A DNA stretch of 11,494 nucleotides, taken from the IMG/VR virus record IMGVR_UViG_3300018488_000078, one strand, 5' to 3'. Shown here one piece after another: positions 1,581-4,160 of this stretch; the stretch's first letter is position 1; the number at the start of each line of letters is the position of its first letter. A model generated the notes under the pieces. The model had not been told where the DNA came from. It saw nothing but the letters and a program-made list of their open reading frames with translations, and made no database searches. Made by a program: the position numbers and the translations under genes. This DNA comes from a virus. Its lineage: Duplodnaviria > Heunggongvirae > Uroviricota > Caudoviricetes.

Positions 1581-2334
1581 TCTTCTCCTCCTCTGTTGAT
1601 TGTCGCAGCCCGGATTCAAATGCCGCAGCCGCCCAGGCGGGCGGTTTAAGACCGGCTGCACGGCGCTCCATCGTTTCACGGACCTGCTGGGCAAAAATTT
1701 CCTGATAGTCGTCACCGCGTTTTGCGCACTCTTTCTCGTAGGTACTCAGTCCGGCTTCTATCAGCATCACCGCTTCCTGTACTTCTTTCAGACCATCGAT
1801 GGCCATACGACCGGAGCCTATCCAGTCGCAGTTCCCCCAGGCACTTCGGGCTTCCTGAAAACTGAAGCGCGCTTTTGAAGGTAACGTCACCACGCGGCGA
1901 GCGATGGCCTCTTCCAGCCAGCACAGAAACATCTGGCTCGCCTGACGGGATGCGACGAATTTTCGCCGCCCCATAAAGTACGCCCACGACTCGTTCGCAC
2001 TGGCCCGTGCCGTGGAGTAGCTCATCTGGGCGTAATTCCGGGAAAGCTGCTCATACGAGACACCCAGTCCGGCAGCGATATACCGCAACAGTGACTGCTC
2101 AAACACGGAGTAGCCGTTATCCGTGTCCTGAGCCGTCTGCAGGTTCAGTGAGTCCCCCGGCATCAGGTGCGGCACTTTTGCGCCTCCCAGCCGGACCGGT
2201 GCTGCGGCGTAATACGCGGCAATTTCACCAATCCAGCCGGTCAGCCTTTCCCGCTGCTCCTGACTGTTCGCGCCCAGAATAAAATCCATCGCTGACTGCG
2301 TATCCAGCTCACTCTCAATGGTGGCGGCATACAT
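1561..2334 (-). pseudogene. B: Portal protein gpB, C-terminal 257 codons only; N-terminal half absent (truncated gene)
   Basis: Translation MYAATIESELDTQSAMDFILGANSQEQRERL...AFESGLRQSTEEEKSDSRAA matches the C-terminal part of lambda gpB as recalled; lambda B is roughly twice this length. Upstream of 2334 the frame runs only 11 more codons (ILFFSCLFIKA, AT-rich) before a stop at 2368-2370, then non-coding repeat DNA. Confidence 0.85.
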
Positions 2335-2469
2335 CGCCTTTATGAAAAGACAGGAAAAAATAAAATTTAAAAACAGTACATTACGAATGCTCAGACCTAT
2401 CGTTTAAAGGAGTCGCAATACACACTGCAATACACGATTATTTATAAGATGAGCGGCATCCGTCATAAA

Positions 2470-2708
2470 GCTGGTGGATGCTTTTTCTATGCATATATGC
2501 ACAGTTTTAGTGGGCGTTAATGTCGATATAGGGATCCCCATATCGAGATTGGATACCTGGCTTTTTTCCGGTTAACCTTTAATCAGGCTGGTGGGCTTTA
2601 CCTGTTTTGTATGAGTGGTCATCATGACCATGTCATAACAAAAACCCCATATTCGTGGTTTTTCTGTGTCGGGCTATTCTGTCGTTGCTGTGCTGATTTG
2701 GCTGGTGG
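2470..2708 (+). repeat. Cluster of three Chi octamers (5'-GCTGGTGG-3') at 2470-2477, 2587-2594 and 2701-2708, same strand, spaced 117 and 114 bp
   Basis: Octamers read directly from the sequence; the second and third share the 12-mer GGCTGGTGGGCT. They lie in non-coding DNA between ORF93 and the truncated B gene. Confidence 0.85.
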
Positions 2709-2763
2709 GCTGAATCATCATTACGGCGATGCAGCTATGTAGACGTTCCGGCCTCCTCAAATT

Positions 2764-2925
2764 GAGGATTGTGGAAGAATCAATGGGTTAGTCTTACTTT
2801 CCCGACATCCCCCAATGGGGGTTTTCGAAACAATCAATAGCTTAGGCTTACTTCCCCGATTTCCTGCATTGCAGGTTTTCGAAATAATCAATGGGTTAGG
2901 CCATCGTGCAATTTTGCACTTTGCC
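2764..2925. repeat. Three tandem units of about 54 bp, each carrying a perfect IHF consensus (WATCAANNNNTTR) at 2768-2780, 2822-2834 and 2876-2888
   Basis: AATCAATGGGTTA, AATCAATAGCTTA and AATCAATGGGTTA sit exactly 54 bp apart; units 2 and 3 also share GGTTTTCGAAA immediately upstream. A palindrome CCTCAAATTGAGG (2745-2757) precedes the array. Confidence 0.7.
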
Positions 2926-3149
2926 AGCCAGCGCAATGTCGCGTTATCAGTCCTCGGATGTGAGGGATGTAGCCAGCTTTTCCCCCAGTGGGGGATATCC
3001 AGCACCGACGGCTTAACTGTGCGTGCCAGCACAAGGTAGCCTTGAACTACTTACTGCATCCCATCTTACAGGCCGTGCCTTCCTGCTTAACTTTTTGCAA
3101 TGCAACAAGTCAGCCAGCGCAATTTTGCGTTATCGGGAATATCAGCAAG

Positions 3150-3431
3150 TTACCGCCGCAATCGTTCCGGCTTCTTCCACTGGTAAGTATTTTTCGCGCT
3201 CTCCCTCCGTTGTTGAGAACGGCGACGATATGCCAGCAACTCAAGGACTCTTGTTCGTATGTTGCGCATATCCACGCCGTTAAGCTCAATACCGTCACGG
3301 CGCATCACCTCAGCCACTACACGCACATAATTATCTGCGGTCACGCTGTCCGGCTGCGTGGCCTGTTCGTCATGCTGCTTGCTGATTCCACAAGCACGGC
3401 GGATTAATCGCAGTATTTCGGATTCAGTCAT
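3150..3431 (-). CDS. Hypothetical protein, 93 aa, in the position where a large terminase gene would follow the small terminase
   Basis: ATG at 3429-3431 starts 11 nt after the TerS stop; weak Shine-Dalgarno, so translation may be coupled. Product MTESEILRLIRRACGISKQHDEQATQPDSVTADNYV... has no recognisable domain by eye. It is far too short to be a large terminase. Confidence 0.45.
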   Translation of the reverse strand: MTESEILRLIRRACGISKQHDEQATQPDSVTADNYVRVVAEVMRRDGIELNGVDMRNIRTRVLELLAYRRRSQQRRESAKNTYQWKKPERLRR

Positions 3432-3442
3432 AGCGTACTACG

Positions 3443-3985
3443 TTACTTATCTTTATTCGGCTGCAACTTATCCGGTACGTTTCCGGCAGTTTCCATCAGA
3501 TAATCGGACAGCATCAGCGGTATGTTTTCGTCAAGTTTTGCGCATGCGTTACAGGCTCTGATAACTTCTTTTTTCAGTCCATCCAGCATAGACGGCTTCA
3601 TGTCGGGAAACTTCCTTGTCATGGCAAGCGGCAGGCTGTCCATGATTGAAGAAATCTGACTCGCCAATTTTGAAAGCACGTATATACAAAACGCTGTATC
3701 AATAACGTCGCCGCGTTCGCGCTCGTTTTTAAGCTCCTGCGCCTCTGCCTGTGCTGTCAGCAATCTGATCCTGACTCGTAGGAGTTCATCATCATCAATC
3801 TCGCCTTTGTCGTCTGTAATCTGGTTAATTGCATTGCTAACCCGATTGTCTATTACGCTGGCAACATCATAAAACGCCTCGCGGCCTTTACGTTCAACGG
3901 GAGTCACTCCCCACTTGTCGAACGCTGTCGCACTTACACGGCAGCTTTGCGCCATGTTTTTTTTGTTCATCAGGTGCGATTTCAT
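3443..3985 (-). CDS. Terminase small subunit, Nu1-like, with divergent N-terminal (DNA-binding) region
   Basis: C-terminal two thirds align by eye to lambda Nu1: RLLTAQAEAQELKNERERGDVIDTAFCIYVLSKLASQISSIMDSLPLAMTRKFPDMK versus lambda RLTRAQADAQELKNARDSAEVVETAFCTFVLSRIAGEIASILDGLPLSVQRRFPELE. The N-terminal ~70 residues differ. Start chosen at ATG 3983-3985 (GGGGA 6 nt upstream); GTG at 3995-3997 and ATGs at 3968-3970 and 3953-3955 are alternatives. Confidence 0.85.
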   Translation of the reverse strand: MKSHLMNKKNMAQSCRVSATAFDKWGVTPVERKGREAFYDVASVIDNRVSNAINQITDDKGEIDDDELLRVRIRLLTAQAEAQELKNERERGDVIDTAFCIYVLSKLASQISSIMDSLPLAMTRKFPDMKPSMLDGLKKEVIRACNACAKLDENIPLMLSDYLMETAGNVPDKLQPNKDK

Positions 3986-4096
3986 CAATATCCCCACTTA
4001 AGTAATGTTTCAGGTTGGTGTATTGGCTTTATCTTTTCCTTTTTATTCATAGAGATAGAGCGAACAACAAAACCACCACCAGCACCCGAAAAAGGC

Positions 4097-4160
4097 TCAT
4101 AAATAGCGAAAACCCGCGAGGTCGCCGCCCCGTAGCCTACCGGATCACCGGAAAGGACCC
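4097..4160 (-). other. Lambda-type cos site: cosQ-like segment (4141-4160) and cosN with 12-nt cohesive-end sequence GGGCGGCGACCT (4119-4130); cosB side divergent
   Basis: Minus strand reads GGGTCCTTTCCGGTGATCCGGTAGGCTACG-GGGCGGCGACCT-CGCGGGTTTTCGCTATTTATGA. The cohesive-end 12-mer and flanking cosN sequence match the lambda left end as I recall it, and the upstream segment matches the lambda right-end/cosQ region except for a few bases. Below 4097 the sequence departs from lambda cosB. Confidence 0.85.

Follow-up and report, generated by a model that had tools for sequence, protein, structure and literature searches.

Tandem cassettes of a palindrome and an IHF-type box in a helper-embedded phage satellite resemble a segment of phage roi genes

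We analyzed a stretch of viral DNA of 11,494 nucleotides (IMG/VR record IMGVR_UViG_3300018488_000078; hereafter the window), focusing on a tandem array at 2748-2909 that carries three sites matching the consensus of integration host factor (IHF). The window is a phage-inducible chromosomal island (PICI) of the EcCICFT073 cos type, a satellite that is embedded in its helper, inside the portal gene of a lambda-type prophage. Each unit of the array (hereafter cassette) joins a palindrome to an IHF-type box, and the three cassettes correspond to three alleles of one short segment of roi, a regulatory gene of lambdoid and Stx phages. We estimate a probability of about 50% that the array is a set of modular docking cassettes for the Roi classes of helper phages together with IHF, acting as a decoy.

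A tandem array of palindrome–IHF cassettes

The window holds exactly three perfect matches to the IHF consensus WATCAANNNNTTR, all on the + strand (2778-2790, 2832-2844, and 2886-2898) and exactly 54 bp from one site to the next, whereas shuffled sequences had a mean of 0.48 matches and reached three or more in 4 of 200 shuffles. The core consensus (WATCAANNNNTTR / WATCARNNNNTTR) was thus found at these three sites and, as a WATCAR match, at a fourth + strand site that the broader form adds (3140-3152). An initial annotation of this DNA had also reported three perfect sites with an exact 54-bp spacing, and both hold, although its coordinates (2768, 2822, and 2876) were each 10 bp too low. Tandem Repeats Finder (TRF) placed a tandem repeat at 2778-2901 (period 54, 2.3 copies, 80% matches), and a repeat search resolved three in-register 54-nt copies (Table 1). 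Lying as they do in copies of one repeat, the three sites do not count as separate events in the window, and their significance comes from relatives.

Each unit consists of a 13-bp palindrome with 5-bp arms and a 3-nt centre, then a 10-bp spacer, and then the IHF consensus. The arms vary from copy to copy while dyad symmetry is retained in all three, and copy 1 is a hybrid that carries a type-B-like tail. A fourth cassette of like design lies further along the noncoding end, and its final three bases are the stop codon of an opposite-strand open reading frame (ORF) of 93 aa; this type is the commonest unit beside the 93-aa ORF in related satellites and had no match in our phage collection. A truncated left part of the same cassette (2925-2948) and its intact counterpart (3111-3134) bracket 186 bp that are missing from some relatives. 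The 54-bp phasing, whose conservation in relatives the initial annotation had proposed as a check, is a by-product of cassette size and not a conserved higher-order feature: directly adjacent units in relatives lie 54-55 bp apart because that is the length of the unit, and other spacings are irregular. We also considered a coding array and rejected it. No stop codon interrupts the roi frame across the repeats (ORF 2815-3039), but its first start is an ATG inside cassette 2; this ORF has no annotated RefSeq counterpart, and the frame is lost where the spacing is 55 bp or irregular.

Each cassette corresponds to a different roi allele

BLAST searches of the repeats against complete E. coli genomes returned the ends of related satellites and, in addition, short, strong matches inside a gene of the nin region. 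In lambdoid and Stx prophages this gene is annotated as a KilAC-domain antirepressor, and in VT2-Sakai, HK629, and many Stx phages as roi or “DNA-binding protein Roi”; the matched gene is roi. In the encoded protein, a Phage_pRha domain (residues 12-98) precedes an ANT/KilAC domain, and the helix-turn-helix (HTH) is of the Rha type. Cassette 1 (2747-2796) is 96% identical to codons ~41-57 of a roi-type gene in a prophage of O157 strain 644-PT8 and in phage phi330; cassette 2 (2802-2854) is 90.6% identical to roi of VT2-Sakai, HK629, and Stx1a phages; and cassette 3 (2861-2900) is 90% identical to the roi allele of the FORC_029 prophage. All three matches are 40-53 bp long and fall at one position of roi (codons ~41-58), and the copies resemble their own roi alleles more than they resemble repeat copy 1, to which copies 2 and 3 are 72% and 65% identical. 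The cassettes alone match, as the rest of the 810-bp noncoding end (2341-3150) had no match in 50,697 phage records.

The same architecture is present in HK022, the phage in which Roi was studied, where CTGCATTGCAG is followed at the equivalent position of roi (nt ~131-165; locus L006, 4786-4820) by AATCAATGATTTA, the sole IHF consensus of that gene; roi alleles A, B, and C likewise have one IHF consensus each, at that position. Clerget & Boccard (J Bacteriol 1996) reportedly found that Roi binds a site within roi and that IHF, at a closely linked site, stabilizes this binding; our text searches of the literature found no paper describing a Roi/IHF site. The palindrome-plus-box would be the obvious candidate for that composite site. 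An IHF-type identity for the boxes, as the initial annotation had assumed, is reasonable given that noncoding copies on satellites hold the consensus positions constant and vary in the N4 stretch, and that the homologous motif is the only such consensus in HK022 roi.

Among the cassette types other than A, B, and C (see below), type E (TCGCCGCTGGCGA) matches the same codon position of another Rha-domain gene, located beside cro in Stx2 phages. It is the only one of these types for which a counterpart was found, as types D, F, and H had none in the phage collection. In Stx2a phage Stx2_95 (locus L173, 740-1786), the place of lambda cII, directly downstream of cro, is taken by a gene for a Rha-domain “DNA-binding protein” that contains a palindrome/IHF cassette of its own.

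The palindrome type tracks the recognition helix of the encoded protein

Comparison of roi alleles showed that residues ~18-63 are variable and the remainder is invariant, with the palindrome lying in the variable part. We sampled roi-type genes from IMG/VR by anchoring on a conserved downstream coding word. The sample held 179 genes with the box, in five classes, and without exception the recognition-helix motif went with a particular palindrome type. The helix VKRTIE[TM]L (99 genes) goes with CCTCA-N3-TGAGG, which has three centre variants and intact arms; VKQSIERL (51 genes) goes with CCCCCAATGGTGG; VKISIERL or VKVSIDRL (24 genes) with CTGCATTGCAG; and VKRSIERL (5 genes) with CGCCAATGGCG.

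Palindromes at this position also persist in more distant genes. Two far more divergent genes with an RTIETL helix retain CCTCAAATTGAGG, without the IHF box, and CCTC...GAGG palindromes stand at the aligned position in phage D6 (RTIERL; CCTCCAATGGAGG) and in a Roi-like gene of Jerseyvirus S102 with 31% identity (CCTCAATTTTGAGG), although the encoded residues differ. By chance, ~1 in 1,000 genes should have a perfect 5-bp dyad at a given register. Because the dyad recurs with other arms and other encoded residues, this pattern argues for selection at the DNA level, and it suggests that an in-gene operator may be a family trait of roi/Rha genes. Genes that keep the palindrome include those at loci L003 (2380-3102), L004, L005, L296, and L298, together with roi of HK022 (L006, 4656-5381) and the Rha-domain gene of Stx2_95 (L173, 1079-1786).

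Cassettes are conserved in design and orientation among satellites

Fetching 80 relatives through the 93-aa ORF gave 41 distinct 700-bp end regions (28.3 kb). On the strand that corresponds to the window's + strand, these regions hold 78 copies of WATCARNNNNTTR, and the opposite strand holds 6, where shuffles predict 2.9 for both strands together; 59 of the 78 boxes have a perfect palindrome upstream with its centre 15-16.5 nt away (0.1 expected). At least eight palindrome types share this design, namely A, B, C, CAGCCGTTGGCTG, TCGCCGCTGGCGA, CGCAATTTTGCG, GCGCATTTTTGCGC, and CCCATTTTTGGG; across them, WATCARNNNNTTR stands 16-17 nt from the palindrome centre, and the N4 stretch and the spacer vary while the consensus is held. 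Among 45 distinct box-anchored windows, 19 had a perfect 5+3+5 dyad in the exact register (0.74 from column shuffles), compared with 0-1 at registers shifted by 1-3 nt. These 45 windows were chosen by the consensus, so that as a test of IHF conservation the comparison is partly circular; when anchored on the palindrome instead, the box was found at +16/17 in nearly all A-E and H instances, with at least nine N4 sequences. The type B palindrome also differs between its two settings: in a census of GGTTTTCGAAANAATCAAT in IMG/VR (first 120 stretches), the roi-derived copies, like all phage coding type B copies sampled, bear the imperfect CCCCCAATGGTGG (57/57), whereas the noncoding satellite copies bear the perfect CCCCCAATGGGGG (18/18).

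Related satellites carry one to four cassettes in one orientation, and the combinations vary across unrelated integration sites. The A+B+C set of this window, in a portal gene, compares with A+C in an element near phoQ, A alone in an element near bioD, B+C or B alone in others, and four units in the PICI of Nissle (CFT073 type), the last two of which are 54 bp apart. In E. coli ABU 83972 (locus L009, 1320-1720; also L008), an island of another kind, which encodes a TOPRIM/DUF927 primase and has P22-like ejection genes, bears A, B, C, and one more cassette after a perC-family gene and on the same strand as that gene; a tblastn search for a perC remnant upstream of the array in our window found nothing. 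The repeat family occurs in 844 of 5,426 complete E. coli genomes, at 1-5 places each (BLAST), and among the matches listed these are satellite ends or roi-type genes only. The initial annotation had held that its reading would fall if the repeats were a common intergenic family at unrelated loci. The family is indeed found at many unrelated integration sites, but it is not a general intergenic repeat, since the sampled matches are confined to satellites and phage roi genes.

A putative docking or decoy array for helper Roi and IHF

The anatomy of the cassettes, their homology to roi, the correspondence with alleles, the association between helix and palindrome, and the conservation and orientation of cassettes in satellites are direct observations. 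So is the lack of a Phage_pRha domain in the satellite ORFs scanned, both in the window and in a near-identical copy of the satellite in strain CFSAN064035 (locus L001). From these we infer that Roi may bind the palindrome and IHF the box, and what might follow from such binding. Each 13-bp palindrome would be an operator for one specificity class of lambdoid Roi (Rha-family HTH plus KilAC/ANT), with a site for host IHF 10 bp downstream, and the design would copy the roi-internal segment at which Roi and IHF reportedly bind together. Since the satellite has no Rha-domain protein of its own, the sites could be filled only in trans, by Roi from a co-resident phage or element once a roi-carrying lambdoid phage expresses its early genes. 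Through tandem A, B, and C cassettes, a single satellite could engage three Roi classes. Upon induction the satellite would amplify and present operators at least as symmetric as the phage's own, as with its perfect type B palindrome against the imperfect phage version. The Roi soaked up in this way, plus some IHF, might then alter the helper's Roi-dependent control in the satellite's favor. Titration would need no fixed position or promoter and thus fits the shuffled arrangement and variable copy number. Suitable Roi-making helpers exist, because HK629, a Lambdavirus, has both lambda-type Nu1, A, and portal genes and a type B roi. More tentatively, and with distinctly lower probability, satellites may maintain at the end of the late operon a library of Roi/Rha operator mimics that serves as a multi-specificity sponge or a helper detector.

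Several observations weigh against this proposal. Lambda is not known to carry roi. Lambda nevertheless induces EcCICFT073 (PMC6092414), so Roi cannot be a general requirement, and the CFSAN064035 prophage that hosts the satellite has no roi either. The role of Roi in the phage is poorly defined, which makes any benefit of titration speculative, and cassette types D, F, and H are without a counterpart in the phage collection. The helix and the palindrome are only ~50 nt apart, and linkage may therefore contribute to their association; some Rha-family alleles, moreover, have neither palindrome nor box.

Alternative explanations

The main rival would keep the same proteins, helper Roi and IHF, and have the array control transcription of the satellite itself, in cis, as a switch or roadblock. 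It would sense a lytic roi+ helper and then block or redirect transcripts in the interval from the last late gene to attP/int; in the embedded state, it would keep helper late transcripts from leaving the satellite. The location suits this idea, as the array directly follows the stop codon of the last late-operon ORF, lies ~600-750 bp upstream of the int start in the excised circle, and has nearby a promoter-like site (2466-2437, - strand) that faces attP and int. Cox of phage P2 reportedly activates P_LL from repeated sites in P4, which would be a precedent, and helper late transcription does run through helper-embedded PICIs (PMC10111431). We nevertheless consider a switch unlikely: the position of cassettes relative to landmarks is not conserved, units being shuffled, inserted, and separated by variable DNA; in other islands they come after, and on the same strand as, a perC-family gene; no promoter conserved beside the cassettes was found; and lambda, as noted, still induces the related EcCICFT073. 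Other accounts are less likely still. Non-functional debris, that is, captured roi fragments that were duplicated and carried in a junk-rich end, would be in keeping with the highly mosaic end region and with the known capture of phage DNA by satellites (PMC10111431), and a recent fragment would need no selection to show an IHF-like box that is made of conserved codons (I-N-x-L) in the phage gene. We find debris improbable, however, because the fragments are all trimmed to ~50 bp of palindrome plus box with no other part of roi ever present, three alleles of one segment stand head to tail, the consensus positions are fixed without a reading frame while N4 and spacer vary, the type B contrast runs from imperfect phage copies to perfect noncoding ones, and orientation is uniform (78 to 6). 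The cassettes could also be short homology patches or hotspots for recombination with helper roi or with one another, yielding cointegrates or reshuffled specificity modules. Palindrome and spacer/box do reassort, since phage type A occurs with two different downstream halves, satellite types A and B each occur with ATTGTGGAA or TTTYCGAAA spacers, and copy 1 is a hybrid; in addition, the length of the roi matches is within the range usable by Red-type recombination. Yet homology alone does not explain why palindrome and box are kept in types without a phage counterpart, nor does it explain perfect palindromes, and no roi cointegrate was present among the loci examined, which leaves this account very improbable.

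An RNA-level role was also weighed. In + strand transcripts the units could act as weak intrinsic terminators or stabilizing hairpins, with a 5-bp GC-rich stem followed by UUUU, and cassettes 2 and 3 do read CCCCCAAUGGGGGUUUUCG and CCUGCAUUGCAGGUUUUCG on the + strand, with arrays standing at gene 3' ends. We judge this very doubtful: the cassette hairpins went uncalled in a promoter/terminator scan, a U tract is missing from cassette 1 and several other types, and no + strand gene lies upstream in the window. Fold z-scores were modest (-2.3 and -2.0), as expected of DNA palindromes, and their similarity on the two strands indicates no strand-specific RNA; Rfam returned no match for the whole window at gathering thresholds or for 2300-3200 at E<=1. 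A fixed and conserved IHF box would also go unexplained. The roles that the initial annotation had suggested, an attachment-site arm, a cosB-like packaging element, or an origin, drew on the spacing of the three IHF consensus matches, about five helical turns, and on their place near an element end, and we regard them as scarcely tenable, because the att core, the arm motif, and cosN all map elsewhere. An attP arm should have its sites within ~150 bp of the core, whereas the repeats begin ~410 bp from it and more than 300 bp past the arm motif; the other element end, where the initial annotation had advised looking for a matching array, has neither such an array nor an IHF consensus. A cosB-type site should adjoin cosN on the side that is packaged first, whereas the exact lambda cosN lies ~1.2 kb off, past the Nu1-like gene and the 93-aa ORF. 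PICI origins are found immediately 3' of the replication gene (PMC6092414), while over 4 kb separate the array from the primase gene; the array also lacks an AT-rich centre, and its units are unlike each other in sequence. Also against these roles, the array is shared by satellites with unrelated integration sites and integrases and varies from one to four copies.

The satellite around the array

The classification of the window as an EcCICFT073-type cos PICI (type described in PMC6092414) in the helper-embedded configuration of Tommasini et al. (PMC10111431) follows from a set of hallmarks: int, AlpA, a gene in the Bro zone, primase, single-stranded DNA-binding protein (SSB), lambda E-like and D-like capsid genes, a Nu1-like gene, a lambda-type cosN, and insertion into a prophage late gene with a short identity block. 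Bases 1-2340 are prophage and colinear with an uninterrupted portal/protease region, and the satellite is co-oriented with the portal gene that it interrupts. The other junction is seen in the near-identical CFSAN064035 copy, with a 13-bp core overlap; the identity block at that end reads CATAAATCGCCTT (L001, 22328-22340), and the prophage hosting that copy has a capsid gene that is also split, by IS621. In helper-embedded PICIs the attP arm consists of doubled TGTATTGC at -81/+132 from the crossover (PMC10111431), and the doublet in the window is the true att arm of the array-side end.

Table 1 Coordinates of features in and around the cassette array
Feature	Position	Strand	Details
att core	2328..2340		13 bp, CATACATCGCCTT, portal gene/satellite junction
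Helper-embedded PICI attP arm motif, doubled TGTATTGC	2415..2434	-	partner at int end
Cassette 1, type A	2748..2801	+	palindrome CCTCAAATTGAGG 2755-2767; spacer; IHF consensus AATCAATGGGTTA 2778-2790
Cassette 2, type B	2802..2855	+	perfect palindrome CCCCCAATGGGGG 2809-2821; spacer TTTTCGAAAC; IHF consensus AATCAATAGCTTA 2832-2844
Cassette 3, type C	2856..2909	+	palindrome CCTGCATTGCAGG 2863-2875; spacer TTTTCGAAAT; IHF consensus AATCAATGGGTTA 2886-2898
Palindromes without IHF box	2906..2948	+	GTGCAATTTTGCAC 2906-2919; truncated left part of fourth cassette 2925-2948
Fourth cassette, like design	3111..3152	+	palindrome CGCAATTTTGCG 3119-3130; spacer; WATCAR box TATCAGCAAGTTA 3140-3152
93-aa ORF, last of late operon	3150..3431	-	PHROG 1561, unknown function
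lambda cosN, exact	4119..4130	-	GGGCGGCGACCT; lambda flanks; upstream of Nu1-like gene 3443-3997 (-)
Primase gene	7207..8961	-	D5-type

On the - strand, the satellite encodes Bro-N, a D5-type primase, SSB, the lambda E-like capsid protein and D-like decoration protein, an AlpA-type regulator, the Nu1-like protein, and the 93-aa ORF. The cassette array always comes after the 93-aa ORF, on the opposite strand. This ORF was considered as the cassette binder and rejected, as its product does not resemble the N-terminal domain of Roi (hhalign probability 0.25%); a search for relatives of known structure found none, and its structural model was of low confidence (pLDDT 62). Searches of solved structures with the Nu1-like protein and with Roi also yielded nothing. 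The replication and Bro zones (6830-10794) are mosaic, with a D5-type primase here and a RepA-family helicase in the near-identical CFSAN064035 satellite. An IS3-family element (11354-11494) ends the window and truncates the Bro-N gene (10894-11283), and the closest full-length relative, in E. coli EC93, matches up to 11353 only.

The cosN at 4119-4130 is the real packaging site. A Chi site lies 36 bp inside the lambda-like cosN stretch (4076-4130, - strand), and beyond cosN and its immediate flank the gene-ward sequence is no longer lambda-like, so the cosB specificity probably differs from that of lambda; the Pfam Phage_Nu1 match of the Nu1-like protein is confined to residues 70-152, and EcCICFT073-type PICIs have an altered cosB (PMC6739421). 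A second cosN-like sequence, GGGCGGCGACCC, with one mismatch, lies within the primase gene (7808-7819, - strand). EcCICFT073 has been reported with two cos sites, and the second sequence here could equally be due to chance, as two matches at up to two mismatches occurred in 44 of 200 shuffles.

Chi (GCTGGTGG) is present in 10 copies in 11.5 kb, against 0.41 expected. Three + strand copies (2470, 2587, and 2701) lie between the cassettes and att, two of them within a repeated GGCTGGTGGGCT context, and these three appear to be oriented for RecBCD entering at the cos end next to the Nu1-like gene. The noncoding end also has palindromes without a box, AATGTCGATATAGGGA/TCCCCATATCGAGATT (2519-2550), GGTCATCATGACC (2617-2629), GTGCAATTTTGCAC (2906-2919), and CCCCCAGTGGGGG (2983-2995), and related satellite ends contain 370 palindromes against ~110 expected by a rough estimate (~3.4x). 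The boxless palindromes may be further protein-binding sites.

Significance and comparison with known systems

The known means by which satellites exploit their helpers include the proteins of Rpp, capsid remodelling, and antirepressor sensing and, in P4, sites for helper Cox. Allelic mimics of a helper operator would, if our proposal is true, add mimicry at the DNA level to this repertoire, and the cassette type would be a simple genomic marker of the phages with which a satellite interacts. The array also offers a way into the obscure functions of the Roi/Rha proteins, a group widespread in temperate phages, Stx phages among them; independently, divergent roi genes keep a palindrome at one codon position, which suggests that in-gene autoregulatory operators may be a family trait. 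If the more tentative idea of a library were true, it would represent an undescribed way of manipulating or reading the helper, could bear on the phage signal that induces Gram-negative PICIs, and would imply that Rha-family regulators generally carry an operator inside their wing-coding DNA.

Some likenesses to known systems are architectural. RIB/RIP elements (BIME-1), in which repetitive extragenic palindromic (REP) sequences are said to flank an IHF site at the 3' ends of E. coli operons, share with the cassettes the combination of palindrome and IHF consensus and the location at the ends of transcription units; the satellite palindromes, however, are not REP sequences, and the family occupies the few places per genome given above instead of hundreds of unrelated intergenic sites. 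Lambda cosB (R3-I1-R2-R1) similarly has an IHF site among repeated sites for a small DNA-binding protein, and the satellite is an element with a lambda cos, but lambda cosB abuts cosN, whereas the array is separated from cosN by 1.2 kb and two genes. Lambda-type attP arms, like the array, have several IHF sites close to one end of an integrative element; they differ in that the arms of this integrase clade are the TGTATTGC doublets (-81, +132), which are present here, with the cassettes lying over 300 bp beyond.

The closest likenesses are to HK022 and P4. The segment of HK022 roi that reportedly holds the internal Roi/IHF site is homologous to the cassettes and has palindrome, spacing, and a single IHF consensus in common with them; that segment is coding, single-copy, and within the binder's own gene, whereas the satellite array is noncoding, combines three alleles, and is carried by an element in which no Rha-domain gene was found. 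In satellite P4, sites for P2 Cox reportedly lie at the P_LL promoter, and this satellite would likewise bear repeated sites for a DNA-binding protein made by the helper, which would couple it to the state of the helper. The Cox boxes stand at a defined promoter and are activating, whereas the array here has no associated promoter, would combine several specificities, has an IHF consensus with each site, and would mimic the helper's in-gene site. Our reading of the PICI literature and text searches found no description of such cassettes. Sites for a helper protein on a satellite therefore have a precedent in P4, and the new points are the putative mimicry of an operator that lies inside the gene of a helper regulator, the combination of several specificities, and the pairing of each site with an IHF consensus.

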